A stretch of DNA of 64,000 nucleotides from an uncultured Gemmatimonas sp. (GCA_964416005.1 CAYQCP010000006.1:20082-84081), one strand, 5' to 3'; counted from the first letter of the stretch, positions 7,640 to 23,589 are shown. Notes: generated by a model from the letters alone, not told the origin. Made by a program: numbers and translations.

Positions 7640-7867
7640 GTATCTTGTTTATTAACTTAGATTATATAGTATACGCGTTGAAGGTATAGTATCTGGCTCT
7701 CTGCAAGAGTGCGGAATCACCCCATATCCGTTACAGAGTAGGGCGGTCGCTCATGTGTCTACGACTTCCCTTTATGTTGCTTTGTGGCGGTTTGTCTTGT
7801 ATGTTACCTAAAGGGAATGAAACAGCAAACAAGGCCAGAACTGACGTAAAGGGACATAGGAAAGCCA
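7640..7867. promoter_or_regulatory. AT-rich divergent promoter/operator region (zinc-ribbon operon vs hipBA)
   Basis: Local GC drop. TATAGTAT occurs twice 20 bp apart (7665-7672 and 7685-7692), and GTATAC is a palindrome. It lies between divergently oriented genes. Confidence 0.4.
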
Positions 7868-8122: not shown

Positions 8123-9459
8123 TGATGAACCCAAAGCGGGCGGCGCGGTACGATACGAGCGTGCCGAAGCTCGACGTGGAGCTGCGCGATCGGCTCGTGG
8201 GAGCGATCGGCGAGTCGGGGGAGACCGACGTCTGGTTCAAGTACCGCCCTGAGATCGTCCAGGCCTCCACCGGCAAGAAGTTCGACCCGCTGGCGATCTC
8301 GGTGCAGCTCCCGGTGTCCGACGAGCCCTACGGACACGGGGCGACGCTGGCGTTCTTCGACAACCTGCTCCTGGAGTCGGACACCCGCGCCGAACTGGCG
8401 AGGCTCGAGCGCCGGGACACGAGCGATGTGGCGGGCCTGCTCGGACGCGTGGGGGCCGAGTGCGCCGGCGCGGTGTCGCTCTTCCCGGTTGGCGAGCCGC
8501 GCCAGACTCCATCGTACCGGCTACTGACGATCGATGAGGTGGACGCGCTGTTCGACGAGCGATTCGCGCACCGGCTGACCGACGCGATGATCGAGGGCCA
8601 ACAGGTCCTGAGCGGTGCCCAACGCAAGCTCGTGCTGCGCCGGACCCCGGATGGGTGGGCGTTGCCACGGCACGGCGCCCCGAGCACCCACCTCATCAAG
8701 CGATCCAGCGGTCGTTACGATGGGCTGGTGGCCAACGAGCTGGCGTGCCTCCGCCTGCTGGCGGCACTGGACCTGCCCGTGCCGGAGGTGTGGGCCGTGG
8801 GATCCCTGGGTCCGTGGCCGGACGGCACGCAGGAGCCGCGACTTCTCGCCATCGCCCGCTATGATCGCGTCGTGACCGGCGATCCGGCGATCCTCACCGC
8901 ACCGGTGACGCGCGTCCATCAGGAAGATCTCTGCCAGATCACCGGTCGCCGCCCGGTCAACAAGTACCAGGTGACGCAGGGGCCAACGCTCCGGGAACTC
9001 GCCGCCGTCATCCGCCGCGACAGTGCCGATGCCGTGGAGGACTTGGCGCGTGCGCTCACCCTGGCGGTGGCGAACGTCGCCCTTGGGAACGGCGATGCGC
9101 ACGGGAAGAACGTGGCCATGCTCGTGGAGGCGACCGGCCAGCGGCGGCTCGCGCCGTGCTATGACGTGGTGTCTACAGACATCTACGAGGCGTTTGCCCC
9201 GTGGCCGTTTGCGATGAAGTTCGGTCACGCGGATCGGGCGACGGCGTTGCAGCCGACCGACCTCAAACGCCTTGCGGCCGACTTCTCGGTGAGCGGCGCG
9301 CTGGTGCGTGAGACGGTGGCGACGGTGACCGATACCCTGGATACGCGGGTGGATGAGATCTGTGCGGCGGTGGAGGTGGAGGTCGGCGTGCCGACGCCCG
9401 CGCTCACGCGACTCCGCGCCTTGGTGCATGCGCGTTGCGCACGGCTACGCGCGCTGTAG
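8122..9459 (+). CDS. hipA: HipA-family serine/threonine kinase toxin
   Basis: Start at MMNPKRAARY (codon 52 of track ORF 7969..9459). N-terminal HipA coupling domains. Kinase motifs HQEDLCQITG, ALGNGDAHGKNVAML and LAPCYDVVST. Confidence 0.9.
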   Translation: MMNPKRAARYDTSVPKLDVELRDRLVGAIGESGETDVWFKYRPEIVQASTGKKFDPLAISVQLPVSDEPYGHGATLAFFDNLLLESDTRAELARLERRDTSDVAGLLGRVGAECAGAVSLFPVGEPRQTPSYRLLTIDEVDALFDERFAHRLTDAMIEGQQVLSGAQRKLVLRRTPDGWALPRHGAPSTHLIKRSSGRYDGLVANELACLRLLAALDLPVPEVWAVGSLGPWPDGTQEPRLLAIARYDRVVTGDPAILTAPVTRVHQEDLCQITGRRPVNKYQVTQGPTLRELAAVIRRDSADAVEDLARALTLAVANVALGNGDAHGKNVAMLVEATGQRRLAPCYDVVSTDIYEAFAPWPFAMKFGHADRATALQPTDLKRLAADFSVSGALVRETVATVTDTLDTRVDEICAAVEVEVGVPTPALTRLRALVHARCARLRAL

Positions 9460-9707: not shown

Positions 9708-11636
9708 TCACACGCGCGCGCGCCTGGTCGCTGGAGCCGGGCCCCCCTCCGAGCTGCGCGTCCCTGGTGGCTCCGGAATCGGATACTCCCCCCGCATCCA
9801 CGATCTCACCACCGACACATCGACCGAGGAGAAGACCTCCGGCGGACAGTAGATCAGCTGGTGTGTGGCGCGACCGTGCCGCGAAAGTCGAGGCGCTCGG
9901 CACGGGATGATCAGCAGCCGGCGATCGGTGGCGGATCGCTGCATCAGTGGACCCCGCAACGTTGGGGTCTGCTTCCGGAAGTGCTCCACCAAGTCTCGCG
10001 CCGAGTGGAAGTGAGGAATCCACGTTGCGGGGAATCCCGCGGCAAGCACGGCATTGGCGAACGCGCGATCCTGTGCCTCCTGCCGTGACGACTGTGTAAC
10101 GGGCACACCCGCCCGTTCCATCTCCTGCGCGACCGTGGGCCAGTTGAGATAGCGGCGCCCGACAAGATCGTAAGCTACGATGGGTGTCCGCTGTCGAATC
10201 AACCGTTCAATCACGCGCGTTTGCGACGTGCTGAGTACCGGCTGCTGCTCGGCCGCCCGGGTATCCTCATACGCCCATCCCGCACGTCGCGCCGTCTGCT
10301 GTCGCGCATAGTCCGGGAACGCCTTCTCGAGACACGCCTCGTCCGGCGCCACGACCAGCGCACCGTCCGCGTCGACTCGGGCCGGTCCGAGGACACCCTG
10401 CATCACCCGGTGCCACAGGTCCCGCTCGTCAGCGCCCGTGCGATGAGCCAACACACTGATCGTTTCGCCTTGACCGCTGACGATCGCTGGCACCTCTTCG
10501 AAGTACCTGTGCAAGAGGGCCACCGAGTCGACCTCATCCGGCGTGAACTCGCGGGAACCGATGATCTTGAGTCGGCCCGCCGCCAACTCTCGGGCGATTG
10601 CCTTCCGTTCGCGACCACGTTGCCGCTGCGTGTACGCCCACAAGCGTTGCGGCTGCGTGGTCCAGACGGGTCCCGTGAGGATCAGCAGTTCCGTCGTAAC
10701 GCCGTGCGGGAACGTGATCTCCGCCAAGGCCAATTTCGGCGCGATGCGCCGGAGCGCGATCGTGGTCGTCAACAAGCGGACGAGTCGGCGCGTGGCACCA
10801 GGCACCGGGGCGGCGAGGACGAAGAGCTGCTCCACACGACCGGCCAAGGAACGTAGAGCGTTGAGCACGCGTCGCCGCAACACGGGATCGCCTGTCGACA
10901 GCTGCGCCTCACGCGCCTCCACGAGTGCCGCACGAAGGGCTTCGCGTTCGCTGAGATCATGTTCCATCGTCAGGAGAAGCGCCTCCCGCAGCCTGTCGCG
11001 CGTTTCGAGATTCGCGTGCACCATCAGTCGAATACGTTGCTCCACGTCGGCGAGTTTGTCCTGCAGTCCCGCCAGCTGGCGGATCTTCTCACGTTCGAGA
11101 CCCTCGACCAGGTGTCCGAGTTCTTCGAGGGGCACCGCGCGATAGGCCGTGGCGATGGCCGACAGGATCGGTCCTTCGACAACGGGAGCGAACCGCGCCG
11201 CATGCGGCTCCAGACTCTCAATGCAATGTGTGGACCGATACTCATACGTCGTTCCGGCACGGCGTCGCGCGCGCACCGTGATCCCGCAACGATGGTGCGA
11301 CGCGTCCAGCCAGCCACACCGCATGGCCGGCAGTTTCGGATCCAATGGCGCTCTCGCGCGACGCGCGCCGCGGCGCGTCCCCTGGCTCAGCAGACGCCGC
11401 ATGAGTTCGTATGACGAGGAAGGCGCAAATGACGGAAAGGCGTCCATCTTCCACACGAGCGCGCGCGGATCCGCCACGCCGTGCCGGTGCGGATCGCGAT
11501 CGCGACGACCCAATGGTGTCAGAACGTCAACGGACGTGCCCACGACGCCGCCGTCCCCAGCGCCCGTCTCAGGTTCCTCGTCCATCTTCGGATCGCCGAG
11601 ATCCTCCTCGCGCCCGTCAACTCGCACGATGCGCAT
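9708..11636 (-). CDS. Large serine recombinase, C-terminal portion (zinc-ribbon + coiled-coil + long tail) as a separate ORF
   Basis: MRCGWLDASHHRCGITVRARRRAGTTYEYRSTHC (recombinase zinc-beta-ribbon), then the coiled coil LEELGHLVEGLEREKIRQLAGLQDKLADVEQRIRLM. The ATG shares one nucleotide with the upstream TAA (TAATG at 11634-11638). Confidence 0.75.
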   Translation of the reverse strand: MRIVRVDGREEDLGDPKMDEEPETGAGDGGVVGTSVDVLTPLGRRDRDPHRHGVADPRALVWKMDAFPSFAPSSSYELMRRLLSQGTRRGARRARAPLDPKLPAMRCGWLDASHHRCGITVRARRRAGTTYEYRSTHCIESLEPHAARFAPVVEGPILSAIATAYRAVPLEELGHLVEGLEREKIRQLAGLQDKLADVEQRIRLMVHANLETRDRLREALLLTMEHDLSEREALRAALVEAREAQLSTGDPVLRRRVLNALRSLAGRVEQLFVLAAPVPGATRRLVRLLTTTIALRRIAPKLALAEITFPHGVTTELLILTGPVWTTQPQRLWAYTQRQRGRERKAIARELAAGRLKIIGSREFTPDEVDSVALLHRYFEEVPAIVSGQGETISVLAHRTGADERDLWHRVMQGVLGPARVDADGALVVAPDEACLEKAFPDYARQQTARRAGWAYEDTRAAEQQPVLSTSQTRVIERLIRQRTPIVAYDLVGRRYLNWPTVAQEMERAGVPVTQSSRQEAQDRAFANAVLAAGFPATWIPHFHSARDLVEHFRKQTPTLRGPLMQRSATDRRLLIIPCRAPRLSRHGRATHQLIYCPPEVFSSVDVSVVRSWMRGEYPIPEPPGTRSSEGGPAPATRRARV

Positions 11637-12769
11637 TACATCATCTCCCCAGCAAGCAGATCATCGACTCCCGGCAGAGCGGGCCTTCCCTGCTCCAGCG
11701 CGCGGTTGAGGTGCGCGCCCTTGTGCTGCTCGGCGCGATCGGCGCGTAGAGTCTCGTGCACCAGGCCTTCCGCATAGAAGGCGTAGATGCCGTACAGGGC
11801 GGGCAGCATGAACCAGCGACGAAGGGCCTGCCGGTTGACCTTCCGCCACTGCATCCGCTGACCTGGACGCCAGCGCGCTCCCGTTGTGCATGGCACAAGT
11901 CCTCTCCGTGCCTTCGGCCACCCCAGCTCGCCCGCTCGAATGCGCGCGACGACCGCTTGGACATCCTGAAGCTCCAGGAGCCACTTCATCCGCAACTCAA
12001 CGGTCGCACTCACCTCAGCGTCCGGAAACGGCAAGATCCGCAGGGTTCGCGCGTCGAGCACGCTGCCTTCGCGATGCCGGGACAAGTCCCGTACCCAGTC
12101 GCGGAGTCCGTGCTTCTCCAATGCATGGAGATACTCGCGATTATGAGGATCGGCCCAGACCAGTCCCGACGGAAGCGGAATGCGGGCAGCCAAATTCCGG
12201 GCGAGGCTGCGCCGGGACTTCATGCGCCACGACACGGCCACCCGCAGTTCCCGCCGGGCCTCCGCACTACCAGTCGTCAGTTCGTACTCATGATCGGGAT
12301 TGGCCGGATCCAACAGCCGAGTGCCCATCATGAAGATGACGCCGTGACGCTTGGCCAGGCGAAGGAGCTCTTCCATGTCGCCAACGTGCCGAGAGAGGCG
12401 ATGCGTGGCCGACGTCACGATCAGTCCGACCTTGTTGGCCTGGATCTGCTGTAGCAGATAGGTGAAGAGTCGACGTCCGGCGCTGGCGGAGGCTTGCTCG
12501 CCCAACGCTTCGAGCAGCGTCACCACTTCGTGAGAGACACCGAGCTCCAACACTTGGCCGACGCACTGCGATCGTTGCATCTCCGGACTACCCTTCGACT
12601 CGCGAGCTTGCGTCAGGCTGCTCTGGCGGATGACCACGAACGCGCCGCGCTCTGCCGCCGCCCTCAAGCGCACGCGATCATCCACGACCGTGGGCTGCGC
12701 CCAGTTCATCGATGCACGAGCGGCCTGGAACGGATTGACAGACTGCGACAGGTAGGGATCGAACGTCAT
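11636..12769 (-). CDS. Large serine recombinase, N-terminal portion (resolvase catalytic + recombinase domain)
   Basis: AFVVIRQSSLTQARESKGSPEMQRSQC (catalytic Ser region), GLIVTSATHRLSRHVGDMEELLRLAKRHGVIF (DRLSR-like), and RRELRVAVSWRMKSRRSLARNL. Confidence 0.85.
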   Translation of the reverse strand: MTFDPYLSQSVNPFQAARASMNWAQPTVVDDRVRLRAAAERGAFVVIRQSSLTQARESKGSPEMQRSQCVGQVLELGVSHEVVTLLEALGEQASASAGRRLFTYLLQQIQANKVGLIVTSATHRLSRHVGDMEELLRLAKRHGVIFMMGTRLLDPANPDHEYELTTGSAEARRELRVAVSWRMKSRRSLARNLAARIPLPSGLVWADPHNREYLHALEKHGLRDWVRDLSRHREGSVLDARTLRILPFPDAEVSATVELRMKWLLELQDVQAVVARIRAGELGWPKARRGLVPCTTGARWRPGQRMQWRKVNRQALRRWFMLPALYGIYAFYAEGLVHETLRADRAEQHKGAHLNRALEQGRPALPGVDDLLAGEMM

Positions 12770-16973: not shown

Positions 16974-17453
16974 CGTAGTGCTCGAGAGGCGATGGCGACA
17001 GGAAGGCCACTCGTTCGATACCTGGGCGGCTGTGCGCGACGGCAGCAGCCACGATGACGCAGCCGGCTTCGTGTGCCCCGGCGCACGTCGTCCAACAGGC
17101 GTCTCCGTCAGGTATCAACGGCGAGCTCGTCGTTCGGTAGCGATTCAAAGTCCTCCTGCCCAGCACCGACCTCGCCGTGCAGCGCGCCGAACGGACGGCG
17201 CTTCGTACTACAGTTTCAGGTCTGACAAGCGGGCGCGCGCGGCAGACGCCGCGACAAAGGGGGCTCCGCCCGGCACTACGCACGTCGACCTGAGCGTGCC
17301 AGCGATTCAGCACCTCTTGGCCCGCCTCGTCTTCCAGCAACGCCCGCCGGATTCCCAGCGCGTCATCGCGTGCTCCCGCTGGCAACGCCGCCACCAAGAA
17401 GCCGCCCGTCGGGCGCACTTCCGCCCGCACAGACATGACCCGCAACTGCAGTA

Positions 17454-18200
17454 CTAGATGACCGCGAGTTCACGCGGGTATTCGTCCCACGTGCGGCCAT
17501 CGAGTTCACGGCCACCGGCCTTCGGGGTAAAACCGCCCCATTGCTTCCAGAAGAAGCGGATCCTCCGTCGGCGACACAGCGCGCGCAACCCACGCGCCCA
17601 TCGGATGTCGACCGGGCGATACCCTGGTCCGCTCTCCCCGCCGCCGATGATCCAGTCGATCCCGCTGACGTCGAGGTCATCGAGCGGTCCGAGCAGCGGC
17701 TCCGCGGAGATGAACCGCACCGCGGCAGGGATCGCGCGCAACGCGTTGGCGCGGTGCGCCACGTCCATGTTCTCAATCGACGTCCCCATCCAGATATTCG
17801 GGCTCCAGTTCAGCCTGTCGGCAAGGCGCACCGCGCGCTCCGGTCGCTTCGTCAGGAGTTGGAACTGATGCTGGCCACACTCGTTCATCACCGCGAAGAC
17901 CCGCTGGATGTGCTCCAGGGAGAAGTGCGCGTGAAAGACGTCGCTCATCGAGTTGACGAAGACGCGACGAGGCTCCCTCCACTTCCGCGGCAATTCGATG
18001 CGATCGATCCAGAAGCGTGGAGCGAACGGATCGTCGCGATTCGCGGAGGACTCCCGCACGGGCGGCTGCTGTAGGTAGATCTGCCGTGTGCGTCGATAGG
18101 CCACGACCTGAGCGTAACAGTGATCGCAACCGGCGGAGATCTTCGTACACCCCGTCATCGGGTTCCACGTTTCGTCGGTCCACTCGATCTTGGTCGGCAT
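17454..18200 (-). CDS. DUF5131 / phage Gp37-Gp68 family protein
   Basis: MPTKIEWTDETWNPMTGCTKISAGCDHCYA (family-typical start and C-x6-C-x2-C), FVNSMSDVFH, FISAEPLLGP, and IIGGGESGPGYRP. Conservative start at 18200; an in-frame upstream extension exists (see findings). Confidence 0.85.
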   Translation of the reverse strand: MPTKIEWTDETWNPMTGCTKISAGCDHCYAQVVAYRRTRQIYLQQPPVRESSANRDDPFAPRFWIDRIELPRKWREPRRVFVNSMSDVFHAHFSLEHIQRVFAVMNECGQHQFQLLTKRPERAVRLADRLNWSPNIWMGTSIENMDVAHRANALRAIPAAVRFISAEPLLGPLDDLDVSGIDWIIGGGESGPGYRPVDIRWARGLRALCRRRRIRFFWKQWGGFTPKAGGRELDGRTWDEYPRELAVI

Positions 18201-18559
18201 CGAGCGCTCCGGCTCCGGGTGATAGTGCCAAGAATGGCAGCACGGTTCGACCGCCGCAACCGCAACGCGGAGCAGAGTTCGGAGGTCGACGAGGGGAGGA
18301 CACAGGTGTATCGACTGCTGGGCCATATCGAGCGACCCATCGGGACGGATGGCGCCGACGAGCGGCTGCAGCGCGCAGCGCGAGACCGACACGCGCTCGC
18401 AGCGTGTGCCCGTCCGCAGACGCACGTCGTCGACGACCTGGAACAGGTCCCGAATGCCCCGGCCTACGAGACAACGCGGGTTCCCTGCGGGATGCCGGTC
18501 CGTCGCTCGCAAAGCCACCACGACTCTGGATGTGTGCTGTACCACCGCGACCGCCAGCG

Positions 18560-19963
18560 CTAACCCCAGAGTGACCGATTCACCTGCTGCATGCTGGCGC
18601 TGCTGCAGAATACGCAATTTGCGTCTGTCATTCGTCGCCGACGGCGAGACGCGAGAGGCGGCCGCCAGGCGCTGACGCTCCAGTAGTTGTCGCTTAATGG
18701 AGGACCACTCGTCAGTCGCCGGGCCAACTCCAGGGCGAGCAATGTGCCGGCGAGCGCACTGATGAAGGCGAAGGGCGCCAAGACGCGTTCGTCCGCCGTC
18801 GCCGCCAGCGCTCCCGATGCGCACAGCTGCTTGAACAGCGTGTCGTAGGCCGTTCCCTCGATATCGGTGCTGACAAGGTGCGGGTGACGTTTCGCAATCC
18901 GAGCGGCGGCCCGCGGACTGATTCGTGATTCGCGAACATCCGTCACAGTGACATCGAGATGGTCCGCGATATGTTGTTCAAGCGAATACTCCGCTTCGTC
19001 GGCGCGGTAGATACACGCCAAGCAGGCGGCCGTCGTCGGTTGGCGGTGATGGTGGATGACGACCTCGTGAATGCCGGTGGTCGAGGCATCGAACACCTCG
19101 CCTGGACACTCATTCTGCAGCTCGCGTCGCGCGCGACGACTATCAACCGCCACGATGAGACGAGGTAACCATGCGCCATGCGTCTTCATTGGAAGGTTCT
19201 GGAGCCGCGCCCTGTAGCCCCGAAGCGTCAATTGCGCGAAGTCCGCGCGCGCCTTCTCGGCGAGACACAGAGCCTTCGCTTGGCCGATATCGGGCGGATT
19301 GAAGTAGAGCTGTCGATTCAGATTACCTGACGCCACGACATCGTCGTCCGCGATGACCAACTCTCCGGACACCGGGAGATGCCGAAGCGCCCAGAGAAAT
19401 CCGTTTCCGATGGCGCCCGCGCCTGCCAGATACGCGGTCCCCACATCAAACGGGGTGGCAAGTTGCGCGTCGTCGAGCCCTACCACGGCGAACGACAGAC
19501 GAAACGGCAGGCGCAGCGGCACCGGACCCGATTGCGGCACGGTTTCGGGCAGAAGCGCGCGGAAGGCGGCCGCCGCGATGTAACACGCCGCGAGCGCGAC
19601 GTAGGGTCGCGACACGGGAACGTCGAGAGCCGCGGGGAGCTTCGCGCCGTCGATCGTGAGGCCCGCACGATCGAGGACCGCGAATCGGCGTGGTGCCGTG
19701 CTCCTCGGTGTGGTCGCTCCCACAACGACCTCAAGATCCGGCACGAAGCCCTCAGACGTCATGCTGACCTGGGTCACGGAACGAGCCAACAACTCGATCA
19801 CGTCCTGCGCGAGGGCGACGGCGGTCGCATCGCTCGCGGGAGCGGTGACCAGCACATTGCGGTCCAGCGTGCGCTCGGCCTCATCGACGCTGAGTCCGGC
19901 AGCGCGGGCGAGCGTGCGGGCATTCTCTGATCGGGCCTCCTGCGTCAGGAGAGATCCAGGCAT
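18560..19963 (-). CDS. E1-like ThiF/MoeB-family adenylating enzyme (BilD-like)
   Basis: YLAGAGAIGNGFLWAL (Rossmann GxGxxG), NLNRQ, DSRRAR, and the CxxC pairs CLACIY and CVFCSS. About 190 aa of N-terminal extra domain. Start at MPGSLLT (19963). Confidence 0.85.
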   Translation of the reverse strand: MPGSLLTQEARSENARTLARAAGLSVDEAERTLDRNVLVTAPASDATAVALAQDVIELLARSVTQVSMTSEGFVPDLEVVVGATTPRSTAPRRFAVLDRAGLTIDGAKLPAALDVPVSRPYVALAACYIAAAAFRALLPETVPQSGPVPLRLPFRLSFAVVGLDDAQLATPFDVGTAYLAGAGAIGNGFLWALRHLPVSGELVIADDDVVASGNLNRQLYFNPPDIGQAKALCLAEKARADFAQLTLRGYRARLQNLPMKTHGAWLPRLIVAVDSRRARRELQNECPGEVFDASTTGIHEVVIHHHRQPTTAACLACIYRADEAEYSLEQHIADHLDVTVTDVRESRISPRAAARIAKRHPHLVSTDIEGTAYDTLFKQLCASGALAATADERVLAPFAFISALAGTLLALELARRLTSGPPLSDNYWSVSAWRPPLASRRRRRMTDANCVFCSSASMQQVNRSLWG

Positions 19964-20406
19964 GTGTCCACCTCCCGTGCGGGCACCGCACACCACACAT
20001 TGCGGGCGTTCAGGCGGAAGACCTTCACGTCGTCCGCGAAGGTCCGGTCATCCGTGTTGACCGCGAACTGGGGCAGGACCAGCGAGAGCGCCCCTTCATG
20101 GCGAATGATGGCCCATGTATCATCCGCGACTGAATGGAACGCGTCGCGCGGATGCGTGTGCACCTGGGCTGCCACCATCAATCGTTCACGTCGAAGGTGC
20201 GCCGTGAGCTCGCGCATGCTCGCTGGCGGAATCCGGAAGAGATCCGCGCGCGCTTCCTGCATTGGCCGATAGCATTCGGTGACCACGATGGAGTCTCCCG
20301 CTCGTCGACCAAGCCAAAGCACCACGCACTCCACGCGCGTGCGTCCCGTCTCCTGAAGTACTGCGAGCGTTATCGCGCGCAGCGACGCGTTCACCCGGAC
20401 TCGCAT
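19945..20406 (-). CDS. JAB/MPN (JAMM) metalloprotease (BilC-like)
   Basis: ECVVLWLGRR (conserved Glu) and QVHTHPRDAFHSVADD (HxH...S..D). The ATG at 20406 shares one nucleotide with the E2 stop. Confidence 0.85.
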   Translation of the reverse strand: MRVRVNASLRAITLAVLQETGRTRVECVVLWLGRRAGDSIVVTECYRPMQEARADLFRIPPASMRELTAHLRRERLMVAAQVHTHPRDAFHSVADDTWAIIRHEGALSLVLPQFAVNTDDRTFADDVKVFRLNARNVWCAVPAREVDTCLDLS

Positions 20407-20843
20407 CAGCCGGCTCCTTTTCGCCAGGCGCGCCAAAGCTGTGTCAGTAATCCGCCAAGCGAGTATTCGTCCAGTGTCTTCAACGGTTCCCACGGATCAT
20501 TCAAATGGCTCGGATGGCAGTGGTACTCGCGCGACCCGCGCATGCAAACGAAGGGTCGACCCGTCGTGGGATGTGGACTGTTGTTGAACACGCCGGTGGG
20601 GTTCGGCAGGAGTTGCGATAGCGCCGTCCCCGTCGCGTCGAGGAGTGCGATGGACGCGGGCGTGTCATTCCAATCGTCGCACGTCAATCGCACGCGGAGC
20701 GTCGTGCGCCCGGCGGCCGCAAAGGAACAATCAAGATCGGGGAACTCCTGGGTATGCAAGATCCAGCCGCGCTGCGCGAGGAGCGACGCTGGAATGCGCG
20801 CGACCTCCTCGCGAAAGCGGGCTTTGGCAGCTTCGGGGTGCAC
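20406..20843 (-). CDS. E2-like ubiquitin-conjugating protein (BilB-like)
   Basis: SPHPTTGRPFVCMRG resembles the E2 HPN-x(n)-G-x-x-C active-site loop. GTG start at 20843 lies 2 nt after the Ubl stop and is preceded by GGGGGAGGG. The track uses a TTG at 20876. Confidence 0.7.
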   Translation of the reverse strand: MHPEAAKARFREEVARIPASLLAQRGWILHTQEFPDLDCSFAAAGRTTLRVRLTCDDWNDTPASIALLDATGTALSQLLPNPTGVFNNSPHPTTGRPFVCMRGSREYHCHPSHLNDPWEPLKTLDEYSLGGLLTQLWRAWRKGAG

Positions 20844-20845
20844 GG

Positions 20846-21157
20846 CTACCCTCCCCCGCCTTCCGGGGGGCCCCAATCCAGCTCCACCCGTCCCTGGAGG
20901 TGGTTCTCGAGGTAACTCCTCGCGGGATCCACCTGACGCAGGCCGCCATCATCGGAGACCGTGACAAGCCACCCGTCGGTGCTCGTGAGGTGCAGGGCGA
21001 GCGCCGCTGCCTTGAGCACGACCGACACTTTCTGGTGCGGCGGAATCTCCTGGTACCCTTCCTCGGGATAGAGTCCGGCGGTCGTGGAAACCGAGACCTG
21101 TACCTTCTCGGCCCGCTCGACAGCCGCGTTCAGTTGGGACTGCGCAAGATCGCTCAC
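20846..21157 (-). CDS. Ubiquitin-like beta-grasp protein ending in Gly-Gly (BilA-like)
   Basis: 103 aa, beta-rich (VQVSVSTTAGLY...WLVTVSDDGGLRQV...RVELDW). The C-terminus ...PPEGGGG is immediately followed by the stop. First gene of the operon. Confidence 0.7.
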   Translation of the reverse strand: MSDLAQSQLNAAVERAEKVQVSVSTTAGLYPEEGYQEIPPHQKVSVVLKAAALALHLTSTDGWLVTVSDDGGLRQVDPARSYLENHLQGRVELDWGPPEGGGG

Positions 21158-21192
21158 GGAACCTCCGACGCTGAATGATGGTACTGTAGTTT

Positions 21193-21256
21193 ATGGCCAG
21201 TTTATACATATGTCAATGGCCAGATTTCACACTATTTATCTTGCGTTATGGGCCAA
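21193..21256. promoter_or_regulatory. Three ATGGCCA-type repeats in a divergent promoter (candidate RHH operator)
   Basis: TTATGGCCAGTTTA (21191-), CAATGGCCAGATTT (21214-) and TTATGGGCCAATTG (21246-) lie in the low-GC gap between the Bil operon and the RHH gene. Confidence 0.4.
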
Positions 21257-21294
21257 TTGTTGTTACCTTTCAGGTCGCTCACAGGGGGGGACGT

Positions 21295-21504
21295 ATGGAT
21301 CGCCGACAGATGACGCTGATGCTAAGCGACCGCGAAATGACGGTGCTCGACGAGCTCTCTGCGCGCCGTGGGATGTCGAAGACCGCGCTCGTTCGTCAGG
21401 CGCTGAGGCTCTATCAGTCGATCACTGAGCGCATTGCCTCCGGCGACAAGCTCTTCATGGAACACCCGCACACGAAGGAGAAGGCAGAGCTCGTCGTGCT
21501 ATGA
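21295..21504 (+). CDS. Ribbon-helix-helix (CopG/Arc-type) protein
   Basis: MDRRQMTLMLSDREMTVLDELSARRGMSKTALVRQALRLY. ATG preceded by GGGGGGGA. Confidence 0.8.
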   Translation: MDRRQMTLMLSDREMTVLDELSARRGMSKTALVRQALRLYQSITERIASGDKLFMEHPHTKEKAELVVL

Positions 21505-22142
21505 CGGAGTTGATCAGCGTCGTCCCGCTCTACAATCGACTGACGGGCGCGTTTGAGGAAGCTCGACTCTACCAGCCGGTCGATCGCTCACATCTCGATG
21601 ACTTCGATGCCCGCTGGATGCCAGAGTTCGATCGGCGATTCGAAGCTCACGCGGCCCGCGGCGGCCGCGGCATCCCCGAGCAACTCCAGGATTGTCGCTG
21701 GGACTGGCGCGACTTGGTCGAGAAGTACGCCCGACGGCTTGATTACGAGTCGTTTGCCCTTGAGTGCGCAGGAAGCACCCAAGGGCTGCTCCTGGTGGCC
21801 ACGGCGGCGTTTGGTCGCGCCCCCGGGAACATGGGCCTTGAGATCGTCTATGTTGATCGCCTCGCGACGGCGCCGTGGAACCGGCTCGGTGGCGCACGAC
21901 CGCCGGTGTACAAGGGAGTCGGTCGCATCTTGTTGATCGCCGCCATGAGCTTGAGCGATGAATTGGGATTCCACCGACGTCTGGGATTGCACGCCTTGCC
22001 GCAGGCGGAGTCGTGGTACCGAGAGGTGTGCGGCATGGAAGATCTCGGTCCGGATCGCGCCTATGCGAACCTCTGCTACTTCGAAATGACGGAAACCCAA
22101 GCCGCGGCCTTCGTGGCCGAGGACGAGGAAGGCACCGCATGA
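21501..22142 (+). CDS. GNAT-family acetyltransferase-like protein
   Basis: LEIVYVDRLATAPWNR...YKGVGRILLIAAMSLSDELGFHRRLGLHALPQAESWY (acetyl-CoA-binding-type segment). ATGA overlap with the RHH stop. Confidence 0.7.
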   Translation: MTELISVVPLYNRLTGAFEEARLYQPVDRSHLDDFDARWMPEFDRRFEAHAARGGRGIPEQLQDCRWDWRDLVEKYARRLDYESFALECAGSTQGLLLVATAAFGRAPGNMGLEIVYVDRLATAPWNRLGGARPPVYKGVGRILLIAAMSLSDELGFHRRLGLHALPQAESWYREVCGMEDLGPDRAYANLCYFEMTETQAAAFVAEDEEGTA

Positions 22143-22660
22143 GACTGATTGTGTCGAAGGAGTGGCTGCGTCGACGCATCGCGTCGGATCCTGACATGGA
22201 AACCGACGCGGGGCTTTCCGTGGCCCGTCTCGACGGCCTGATCGCCGATGCCGTCGCTCCGCACGGAGTGCCGGGCGTACGCTCCGGGTCCACGGAGGAC
22301 CCACGGGCCCTTCGCCTTGCGCTCGCTCGTGTGGTGAAAGCGCTGCGCGTCCAATCTCACGCAACCGTGCAGGCCCTGGCCGAGCGCCTCGATGTGGAAC
22401 CTGCGGACCTGAAGGGACTCGAGGAGGACCCGGCGTTTATCGTTCCGCCCCGCACGCTCTCGTTGGTGGCAAAGCACTTTCAACTCCCAGTGAGCGAGGT
22501 TGCGATGCTCGCAGGTGCGACGCGGGTGACGGATCGCACCCTGGCTGACAATGCGCTAAAGTTCGCGGCGCGATCCGCCACGCTCAGCGACGTCGACGAC
22601 GAGGGTCGCGAAGCGCTCTTCGCCTTCGTCCGGTTTCTCACCGAACGTACCCACCGATGA
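22139..22660 (+). CDS. HTH (XRE-like) DNA-binding protein
   Basis: Internal ATG at 22139 (ATGA overlap). LARVVKALRVQSHATVQALAERLDVEPADLKGLEED. Confidence 0.7.
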   Translation: MRLIVSKEWLRRRIASDPDMETDAGLSVARLDGLIADAVAPHGVPGVRSGSTEDPRALRLALARVVKALRVQSHATVQALAERLDVEPADLKGLEEDPAFIVPPRTLSLVAKHFQLPVSEVAMLAGATRVTDRTLADNALKFAARSATLSDVDDEGREALFAFVRFLTERTHR

Positions 22661-23589
22661 GCCTCGACGCGCCCGTGGTTGGTGTGCGCGAGCGCCGGTC
22701 CATTGCAGATGCCGTGGCGCGCGTCCTTCAGGATCTGGGAACGCCGGAGCCGCCGCTCAAGCTCGAAGACGTGCGGCAGCTGCTGGCGCTCGACCTGCAG
22801 TACTATGACGGTTCCGACCGGAGCGTCATCAAGGCGTTTACGCACCAGTACCGGCTGTTCGCCAAGAAACGGCTTCCGGCCCTCGGCGCCAAACTGCAGC
22901 AGACGCTACGACAGTCGAAGCTGTTAGCGTTCTGGGTGCCGGACGGTAAGCGCGTTTTGATCGACGAGAGCGCGCCGAAGCCGAAGCATCGATGGATCGA
23001 AGGGCACGAGATCGCGCACAGCCTGACGGACTGGCATCGTGATTTCCTATTGGGCGACATCGCCGCGACACTCGATCCGCAGTGCCATGCGACCATCGAA
23101 GCAGAAGCGAACTATGGTGCGGGACAGCTCCTCTTCTTGCATGATCGCTTCGGCCGTGAAGCACGAGACCTGCCCGCGACGTTCTCCTCCGTCCAGCTGT
23201 TGGCCGGCCGCTACGCCAACTCCATCACCTCCACCCTGTGGCGCTTCGTGGAGCAGCGGAATCCCAGTGGGGCGTCGTTCGGCATGATCAGTGTGCACCC
23301 GAACGTCCCCACGATCGGCGCGCACGATGGCCCTGACCCGTGGCGCTATTTCATCCGGTCGGCTGCCTTCCAAACTCAGTTCTCTCATGTCACGGCGCAC
23401 GACGCGTATCGCATTCTCTCGACGCACGCGACCTATCAGCGCCGCGGCCCGATTCTCGAGATCGAGACGCGACTGCGTGACGTGAACGGGGTTGGGTGGC
23501 ACTTCAGCGTTGAGTCGTTCTGCAACTCGCATGCGGTGCTGACGCTGGGAGTCGCTGTTGCTCCCGTCGCGTCACGCGTCGCGGGATAA
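22657..23589 (+). CDS. ImmA/IrrE-like zinc metallopeptidase
   Basis: WIEGHEIAHSLTDWH (HExxH) and IEAEANYGAGQLLF. ATGA overlap with the upstream HTH gene. Confidence 0.8.
   Translation: MSLDAPVVGVRERRSIADAVARVLQDLGTPEPPLKLEDVRQLLALDLQYYDGSDRSVIKAFTHQYRLFAKKRLPALGAKLQQTLRQSKLLAFWVPDGKRVLIDESAPKPKHRWIEGHEIAHSLTDWHRDFLLGDIAATLDPQCHATIEAEANYGAGQLLFLHDRFGREARDLPATFSSVQLLAGRYANSITSTLWRFVEQRNPSGASFGMISVHPNVPTIGAHDGPDPWRYFIRSAAFQTQFSHVTAHDAYRILSTHATYQRRGPILEIETRLRDVNGVGWHFSVESFCNSHAVLTLGVAVAPVASRVAG

Follow-up and report, generated by a model that had tools for sequence, protein, structure and literature searches.

A putative Tle1-like hydrolase relic lies between a Type II Bil operon and an orphan DUF5131 gene in one Gemmatimonas lineage

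Introduction

The CEHH/6C family of bacterial operons has been renamed Type II BilABCD (Chambers et al., bioRxiv 10.1101/2023.09.26.559546), and its published description comprises four genes, to which CapH/CapP regulators may be added (bioRxiv 10.1101/2023.09.26.559546). The family labeled 6E is the DUF6527-containing Bub family (PMC11601596). DUF5131 proteins have been classed as a subgroup of the radical-SAM superfamily, and no more than that (PMC9477430). In the literature that we searched, we found no experimental study of the pair that DUF5131 forms with TcmP (TIGR04474 and PF07505; PADLOC defence candidates PDC-M30 and PDC-M41). TIGR04474 is the NCBIfam model of TcmP, the three-Cys-motif partner protein, and PF07505 is the Pfam model of DUF5131, under the name phage Gp37/Gp68.

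Here, we analyze a stretch of 64,000 nucleotides from an uncultured Gemmatimonas sp. (GCA_964416005.1, CAYQCP010000006.1:20082-84081), hereafter called the window, in which a DUF5131 gene follows a Bil operon on the same strand. An earlier note on this DNA had observed that the stretch separating the two is open in the frame of DUF5131 and rich in Cys and His, and had proposed either that DUF5131 carries a novel N-terminal Cys/His extension and is a fifth component of the Bil system, or that the stretch is an untranslated leader. We conclude that the locus very probably consists of three unrelated pieces set end to end, namely the Bil operon, the relic of a Tle1-like gene, and an orphan DUF5131 gene translated from position 18200.

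Results

The Neighboring Operon Is of Type II Bil, and Its Distant Relatives Lack DUF5131

The operon displays the gene set and order that define Type II BilABCD (CEHH/6C), that is, a Ubl, a CEHH-type E2, a JAB deubiquitinase, and an E1 with an N-terminal domain, and its island also carries a serine recombinase. Its features, in window coordinates, are the following:

20846-21157, minus strand: Ubl ending in GGGG
20406-20843, minus strand: CEHH-type E2 (Pfam Metal_CEHH, E 2.8e-11)
19945-20406, minus strand: JAB deubiquitinase (Pfam Prok-JAB, E 1.6e-5; PADLOC BilC, E 3e-14)
19945-21157, minus strand: the operon apart from its last gene (Pfam, PADLOC, gene boundaries)
18560-19963, minus strand: E1 (BilD-like: E1-N and ThiF), 467 aa, last gene of the operon (Pfam, PADLOC)

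The E1 matches Pfam E1-N (E 6.6e-18) and ThiF (E 2.7e-16) as well as PADLOC BilD (E 9e-10), and its closest named homologue comes from a Gemmatimonadaceae MAG. The gene ends at 18560, in a frame other than that of DUF5131. Omega for the operon genes is 0.16-0.46. The hallmarks of Bub (6E), a DUF6527 protease (BubE) and fused Ubl-E2/E2-E1 proteins, were absent from Pfam scans of the operon, and the label "Bil/6E" previously given to it should thus read CEHH/6C, or Type II Bil.

The Type II Bil gene set does not include DUF5131. We collected relatives of the E1 through a homologous-protein search, followed by retrieval of the encoding contigs, a single-protein survey of genome contigs having returned none. 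This approach gave eight distant contexts, with E1 proteins 48-53% identical to that of the window. All eight keep the Ubl, CEHH, and E1 genes, most of them with a called JAB gene, and seven keep a divergent regulator cassette composed of an RHH gene, a gene for ~209 aa, an HTH gene, and a gene for ~310 aa. The content of the region 3′ of E1 varies each time (kinase, ATPase, Tn7-like genes, thioesterase, or nothing), and PF07505 occurs within 3.5-5 kb of E1 in none of the eight contexts. The survey of Bil operons for which the earlier note had called therefore revealed no recurrent linkage with DUF5131. Judging from these genomes, the linkage appears confined to one lineage, in which the two are apparently separated by a pseudogene fragment, as described below.

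DUF5131 Is Predicted to Start at ATG 18200

The gene and the motif preceding it are as follows:

17454-18200, minus strand: DUF5131 (PF07505) gene, 248 aa (Pfam, PADLOC, and PHROG matches)
18207-18210, minus strand: GGAG, Shine-Dalgarno-like, 6 nt upstream of the ATG at 18200-18198 (read from the sequence and the alignment)

The protein matches PF07505 over its full length (E 5.1e-88, 295 bits vs. a cut-off of 28.9, profile positions 2-243 of 243), the PADLOC models PDC-M41B (E 8e-92) and PDC-M30B (E 7e-86), and PHROG 2045 (E 4e-86); a PDB sequence search with it gave nothing meaningful. The three-Cys motif that had been announced for the family is present at C18, C25, and C28, with the spacing CX6CX2C (read from the translation), and is identical in the two close relatives of the window analyzed below, G001 and L036. 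Against these two, DUF5131 shows an omega of 0.07-0.17 and no indels in 747 nt. The branch leading to the window carries four synonymous and three conservative nonsynonymous changes, which seem too few to tell whether selection on the gene persists.

DUF5131 corresponds to the last 248 codons of a stop-free minus-strand ORF spanning 17454-18824. Its canonical start at 18200, as read in the earlier note, is borne out by the PF07505 match, which opens at the P of MPTKIEWT (residue 2), and by the GGAG 6 nt upstream, which is invariant in three of three related genomes in a three-way alignment. Because the conserved GGAG and the start of the Pfam model fit this ATG, we favor it as the site from which DUF5131 would be translated.

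Aligning DUF5131 homologues had been suggested as a check on the extension. A phmmer search with the 367-aa extended protein against 1.84 billion representatives retrieved 37,127 DUF5131 relatives. The best 150 of these 37,127 matches start at query residues 101-253, the Met being residue 120, and nearly all of those that form a single stretch start from residues 117-123. For most targets among the matches listed, the match opens near the N terminus of the target itself. The extension is absent from these homologues, its residues 1-100 being covered by none of the best 150 of the 37,127 relatives, and a word-seeded search with residues 1-119 against 5.8 billion proteins found nothing. Moreover, the equivalent Met is also the start of the nearest DUF5131 genes, those of the genomes G017, G040, and G021 (76-70% identity).

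The Open Frame Upstream of DUF5131 Lies in a Stretch With Codon-Like Composition

The stretch in question is the following:

18201-18559: gap between the E1 stop and the DUF5131 start, 359 nt, predicted to be non-coding at present (neutral divergence, private deletions)

The stop-free stretch is real. Throughout its 359 nt, the frame of DUF5131 contains no stop, its translation is exactly the peptide quoted in the earlier note, and an in-frame GTG is found at 18545-18543, where a possible start had been placed. The remark that the other two minus frames are junk needs qualifying, as one of them is also open across the gap; in total, four of six frames are stop-free.

At the 68% GC of this DNA, one open frame is not exceptional: it is obtained in 9% of composition-preserving shuffles of the gap, and 25% of all 119-codon windows in the 64 kb have no stop. 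A single open frame across the gap is within chance expectation. The openness of at least four of six frames has a probability of 3.5e-4, and the GC content by codon position is 0.76/0.51/0.78 (p = 3e-6), a codon-like periodicity implying that the stretch is, or recently was, coding. The register of this periodicity is common to the DUF5131 frame and its in-register antisense frame. GC3 gene calling along the island gave little contrast. A structured RNA or riboswitch was also considered and rejected, the gap having no match in Rfam and a fold energy equal to that of shuffles (z = -0.04).

The Gap Appears to Decay Neutrally in Three Related Genomes

Our comparison of the gap covers three genomes of one lineage: the window, a same-genus genome with the whole layout and a DUF5131 98% identical (G001), and an NCBI MAG contig with the whole layout and an E1 86% identical (L036). 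By the pS of DUF5131, G001 is the closest relative (0.04) and L036 the more distant one (0.12). In the three-way alignment, the 359 nt of the gap contain four 1-nt deletions, each private to one genome, at 18498 (window), 18346 (G001), and 18363 and 18267 (L036), vs. no indels in the 3,345 nt of flanking coding sequence (2,598 nt for the four Bil genes and 747 nt for DUF5131). The deletion of the window is the following:

18497-18498: window-specific 1-nt deletion, which shifts the tail of the putative relic; G001 and L036 have an extra A (alignment column 225)

Over the ~150 nt bounded by the two indels that distinguish it from the window, G001 encodes a different peptide in the DUF5131 frame. 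In L036, this frame is shifted twice, and a stop closes it 87 codons before the ATG. Divergence of the gap between pairs of genomes amounts to 8.9, 18.2, and 14.8%, vs. a pS of 0.04-0.27 for the flanking genes, and its variable sites are distributed over codon positions as 23/17/32 (not significant), compared with 8/4/21 for DUF5131. The local pN/pS of the gap in the DUF5131 register is 0.46-0.60, somewhat under 1, the best single comparison being marginal before correction for six frames and not significant after it; values below 1 may result from persistence of the in-register third-position composition of the relic. Taken together, these patterns argue that the gap evolves neutrally, at the synonymous rate and without coding constraint.

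The Gap Matches the C Terminus of Tle1-Like/DUF2235 Hydrolases on the Opposite Strand

On the plus strand, the gap contains the following features:

18231-18574, plus strand: putative decayed 3′-terminal fragment (~110 codons) of a Tle1-like/DUF2235 alpha/beta-hydrolase gene (BLASTP against L059)
18234-18563, plus strand: 109-aa ORF from the gene caller (P0001), which opens at an internal ATG of the relic and has a tail shifted in frame

We built a majority consensus from the three genomes, thereby eliminating the private deletions, and used its plus frame for a six-frame search of 301 Gemmatimonadota genomes. The consensus matched the extreme C termini of 358-/359-aa proteins in G067 (E 1.9e-9) and G107 (E 3.3e-6), two genomes from the same bacterial family as the window, and the consensus alignments (E 1e-13 and 3e-8, respectively) run to the last residue of each homologue. 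Both proteins are Tle1-like/DUF2235 alpha/beta hydrolases, matching PF09994, the Pfam model T6SS_Tle1-like_cat, with E 1e-71 to 1e-78 over residues 2-265. A metagenome contig (L059) encodes a closer, intact member of 367 aa, which aligns with the G067 protein from end to end at 62% identity. BLASTP of the window plus frame 18231-18503 against residues 266-359 of this member gave 52% identity (E 2e-26), the window's own frame ending eight residues before the L059 end, and the consensus aligned with it to the last residue (E 2e-30). All in all, the plus strand of the gap is 52-54% identical to the last 95-102 residues of the 367-aa member.

The fragment is convergent with E1. Its segment 18231-18503 is still one frame, and the ancestral tail reads in another frame to a stop at 18572-18574. 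Searching the genome with a full-length Tle1-like member gave a match for residues 285-357 only, at window 18282-18497, and no piece of the catalytic domain (~265 aa) was found elsewhere in the genome; the same search of G001, in which the copy is frame-broken, gave no match. The locus thus differs from the known members of the family in that it retains only the C-terminal tail, outside the catalytic domain, with frameshifts in every genome having this tail. Pfam and PHROGs gave no matches for the peptides read from the gap on either strand, which for the relic is explained by the surviving tail falling outside the PF09994 model.

Based on these alignments, a Tle1-like/DUF2235 gene on the plus strand, once tail-to-tail with E1, very probably decayed and left its 3′ end as the gap, and the Cys/His-rich open frame would be the in-register antisense reading of this relic. 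Long antisense ORFs in high-GC coding DNA are a known annotation artefact, and similar ones overlie the DUF5131 gene itself. The gap differs from such cases in that its sense frame is dead, and therefore the cause of the open frame was hidden from a reader working without homology searches. All 12 Cys/His codons of the peptide are reverse complements of GTG, GCA, ATG, or ACA, suggesting that its Cys/His richness arises because Val, Ala, Met, and Thr codons of the relic are read backwards as His or Cys. The minus-frame peptide itself has no real similarity to the Tle1-like homologue (E 0.088). A relic origin would account at once for the periodicity of the gap, its neutral decay, its orphan status, the open antisense frame, and the Cys/His richness.

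The called ORF, P0001, has no homologous cluster in 5.8 billion proteins, its frame is broken in both G001 and L036, and pN/pS in this frame is 0.7-1.5. A truncated protein made from the plus-strand ORF is formally possible in the window genome alone.

Two other origins of the gap were tried and rejected. As a conserved 3′ element of the Bil cassette, it would be expected downstream of other E1 genes, and the DNA following seven distant ones could not be aligned with it (34% column identity). As the native upstream region of DUF5131, it would be expected before related genes, and the upstream DNA of G017, G040, G021, and G026 could not be aligned either. By eye, the DUF5131 upstream regions show a weak resemblance, in the last ~30 nt before the start alone.

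The proposal of a novel N-terminal Cys/His extension is thus not upheld: its frame is not conserved, its sequence diverges in a neutral manner, it has no homologue, and it reads as the antisense of a relic. As for the alternative offered in the earlier note, a leader, the gap does appear untranslated, but not a dedicated leader, and is better described as a decayed gene fragment.

The TcmP Partner of DUF5131 Was Probably Deleted

In G001 and L036, a gene of 445-457 aa is convergent with DUF5131, and the two stop codons overlap. Its product is TcmP, as indicated by matches to TIGR04474 (E 1.1e-42) and PDC-M30A (E 1.4e-36). The same convergent pair with overlapping stops is present in three further Gemmatimonadota genomes, G017, G040, and G021, with unrelated surroundings, so that the pairing described as usual for DUF5131 is seen in all five. 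No TcmP was detected with TIGR04474 in the window, as the earlier note had remarked, nor in the whole genome (99.5% complete), the same search being positive in three control genomes. Comparison with G001 points to the following site:

17454-17457: CTAG junction, at which 1,428 bp are missing relative to G001 (sequence comparison)

The 1,428-bp stretch of G001 has CTAG at both ends and contains tcmP together with the final 26 codons of the 229-aa gene lying upstream, the one that precedes tcmP in L036. On the most parsimonious reading, tcmP would have been lost here through a 1,428-bp deletion between the two CTAGs; a single loss is favored because both the closest relative and the more distant one have the gene. 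An IS-mediated deletion was considered and rejected, as the DNA left of the junction is single-copy and has no terminal inverted repeats.

The DUF5131 of the window is a full-length match for PF07505 and fits PDC-M30B/M41B, as in known TcmP-DUF5131 pairs. What differs is that the A component of PDC-M30, TcmP, is gone from the whole genome and the system is incomplete, whereas A and B are adjacent in G001 and L036. DUF5131 would therefore represent the orphaned B half of a TcmP-DUF5131 module (PADLOC candidate PDC-M30). It would normally act together with TcmP; deprived of this conserved partner, it is most likely a remnant that has no function or will soon decay, and the lack of frameshifts in it so far probably reflects how recently tcmP was lost.

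Transcription Signals Around DUF5131

A scan for transcription signals in 17000-21600 retained one site:

17403-17415, minus strand: terminator-like hairpin, with a stem starting ~40 nt downstream of the DUF5131 stop (consensus match alone)

This hairpin is the sole terminator-like match in the interval, where matches are fewer than expected from shuffles. The earlier note had named a promoter or terminator in the gap as evidence that would count against its proposal. Neither was found by consensus scans, which detected no sigma-70-like pair with at least 8 of 12 matches on either strand of the gap and no terminator-like site between E1 and DUF5131. A LexA box in the gap was also rejected: the sole near-match to LexA-type patterns that was checked in relatives, GAACCCGCGTTG, has one mismatch and is not conserved in L036. 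Since DUF5131 retains ~30 nt of its own leader, with no promoter- or terminator-like site between E1 and the gene, any transcription of it would probably be due to transcripts that run on from the Bil operon or to a promoter that happens to lie in the relic. DUF5131 and the Bil operon may be co-transcribed.

Discussion

Our results suggest the following history for this locus. A Type II BilABCD operon ends with E1 at 18560, and the 359-nt gap would hold what is left of a dead Tle1-like gene on the plus strand, its 3′ end, placed tail-to-tail with E1. Upstream of ~18231, the rest of that gene, catalytic part included, would have been replaced by DUF5131 in the opposite orientation, such that the relic abuts DUF5131 with a DUF5131 leader of ~30 nt, GGAG included, in between. 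In the order of events that we reconstruct, tcmP would then have been removed by the 1,428-bp CTAG-CTAG deletion, leaving DUF5131 as an intact orphan. The open Cys/His frame would be the antisense of the relic, a frame that rarely has stops in coding DNA of 68% GC.

Several other explanations have to be weighed against this history. Translation of DUF5131 from an upstream start, for instance the GTG at 18545, would yield a 363-aa protein with a novel Cys/His domain acting as a fifth Bil component. Such a reading draws on the frame being open from 18824 to 17454 with this GTG in it, on the position of DUF5131 on the E1 strand with no predicted terminator between them, and on the local pN/pS of 0.46-0.60, but we give it next to no chance: G001 reads a different frame over ~150 nt and L036 is shifted twice and stopped, the extension lacks homologues and its peptide corresponds to the antisense of a Tle1-like fragment, and the conserved GGAG and the Pfam model start agree with ATG 18200. 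Nor do the Bil operons argue for a fifth component, DUF5131 being absent from all eight distant ones and its usual partner TcmP apparently deleted here. It is likewise highly improbable that the 109-aa plus-strand ORF (18234-18563) is live and encodes a domesticated Tle1-like C-terminal domain, perhaps with an immunity-like or regulatory role. Although the ORF is intact from its ATG in the window, called as a gene, and still 52% identical to its parent family, it is frameshifted in both relatives with a pN/pS of 0.7-1.5, the 1-nt deletion private to the window shifts its tail, the sequence shows no Shine-Dalgarno motif before its ATG, and 5.8 billion proteins contain no homologous cluster for it.

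For the left end of the locus, a 4-bp repeat on both sides of an indel fits a gain as well as a loss, and tcmP could be an insertion in G001 and L036, with nothing deleted here, in which case the DUF5131 of the window was never partnered. The chance of this is very slim, given that both relatives (pS 0.04 and 0.12) have tcmP and a single loss is parsimonious, that the DUF5131 genes of G017, G040, and G021 all have a convergent TcmP with overlapping stops, and that the tail of the 229-aa neighbor gene found in L036 is likewise included in the 1,428 bp. The orphan could also have been captured functionally by Bil, being expressed by read-through from E1 and working with or on the Ubl machinery without TcmP. 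Its position on the E1 strand with ~30 nt of native leader left, the lack of a terminator-like site before it and the presence of the sole one of the region after it, the layout kept in three genomes, and an intact gene after the loss of tcmP (four synonymous and three nonsynonymous changes) are all compatible with capture. We nevertheless consider it very unlikely, as the layout is found in one lineage alone, two of whose three members still have tcmP, the eight other Bil operons lack DUF5131, and the spacer decays as neutral DNA does; consensus scans prove nothing on transcription, and the substitutions since the deletion are too few to show continued selection. A more specific version, in which this radical-SAM-type protein has been co-opted via read-through as a lineage-specific Bil accessory that modifies, for example, a Bil substrate or the Ubl, is slightly less likely still. 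If co-option by Bil were true, it would mean that DUF5131 is able to act without TcmP.

We therefore retain the history of three unrelated pieces, Bil operon, Tle1-like relic, and orphan DUF5131. The novel domain that was proposed does not exist, and the locus contains ordinary genes of known families; what had been taken for a "novel Cys/His domain" and a "fifth Bil component" would be, respectively, the antisense of a pseudogene and a neighbor placed there by chance on a defence island. Where genomic GC is high, the openness of a frame before a gene is weak evidence, and such cases are settled by combining six-frame homology searches with the distribution of indels among close relatives. Finally, the natural deletion of tcmP, beside two relatives with an intact pair, offers a comparison for the study of the still uncharacterised TcmP-DUF5131 system.

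A conserved regulator-like cassette beside the Bil operon

Upstream of the Type II Bil operon (Ubl, CEHH-type E2, JAB, E1), and divergent from it, lies a four-gene cassette, which also occurs in other contigs:

21193-23589, + strand: four-gene cassette divergent from the Type II Bil operon; also in contigs L037-L049, L051 and L052

The cassette encodes, in order, an RHH protein (Pfam E 7e-6), a protein of about 209-213 aa without a family, an HTH protein and a protein of about 310 aa with a weak Peptidase_M78 match. Gene sizes and order are unchanged beside seven of the eight distant E1 homologues whose neighborhoods were examined. We liken the HTH and M78-like pair to CapH/CapP, regulators reported with 15% of Type II Bil operons (bioRxiv 10.1101/2023.09.26.559546); that description of the operons makes no mention of the pair formed by the RHH and 209-aa proteins.

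Rearrangement and mobility of the region

In the source genome, tcmP, the partner of the DUF5131 gene, is deleted, with a CTAG at each of the two ends of the deletion. In L036, a MAG contig of a more distant relative, a further gene precedes tcmP:

17454-17457: CTAG bounding the tcmP deletion; the two copies in contig L020 are at 7758-7761 and 9186-9189
L036 7591-8280, - strand: gene for a 229-aa protein, immediately upstream of tcmP (26-nt overlap)

The 229-aa protein, which had no match in Pfam, PHROG or PADLOC, could be encoded by a third gene of the L036 version of the TcmP-DUF5131 module. In G001, the closest relative, this gene is reduced to its last 26 codons at the left CTAG, which is itself a junction, indicating that CTAG marks two successive rearrangements. 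A search for an IS element or inverted repeat accounting for the repeated CTAG junctions found none.

Synonymous divergence (pS) between the source genome and L036 is also uneven, being 0.12 for DUF5131 (17454-18200), 0.10 for CEHH and 0.11 for JAB, each less than half the 0.27 of E1 (18560-19963), which may reflect either a different history (recombination) or a different codon constraint.

About 5 kb from DUF5131 lie a recombinase gene and a further ORF:

9708-12769, - strand: serine recombinase (Resolvase domain, E 2.8e-7), then a 642-aa ORF

This proximity is consistent with the entire region being a mobile island. Elsewhere, in one metagenome contig set (L045-L047), TniQ, TniB and transposase genes directly adjoin Bil plus the regulator cassette, both of which may therefore be cargo of a Tn7-like transposon there.
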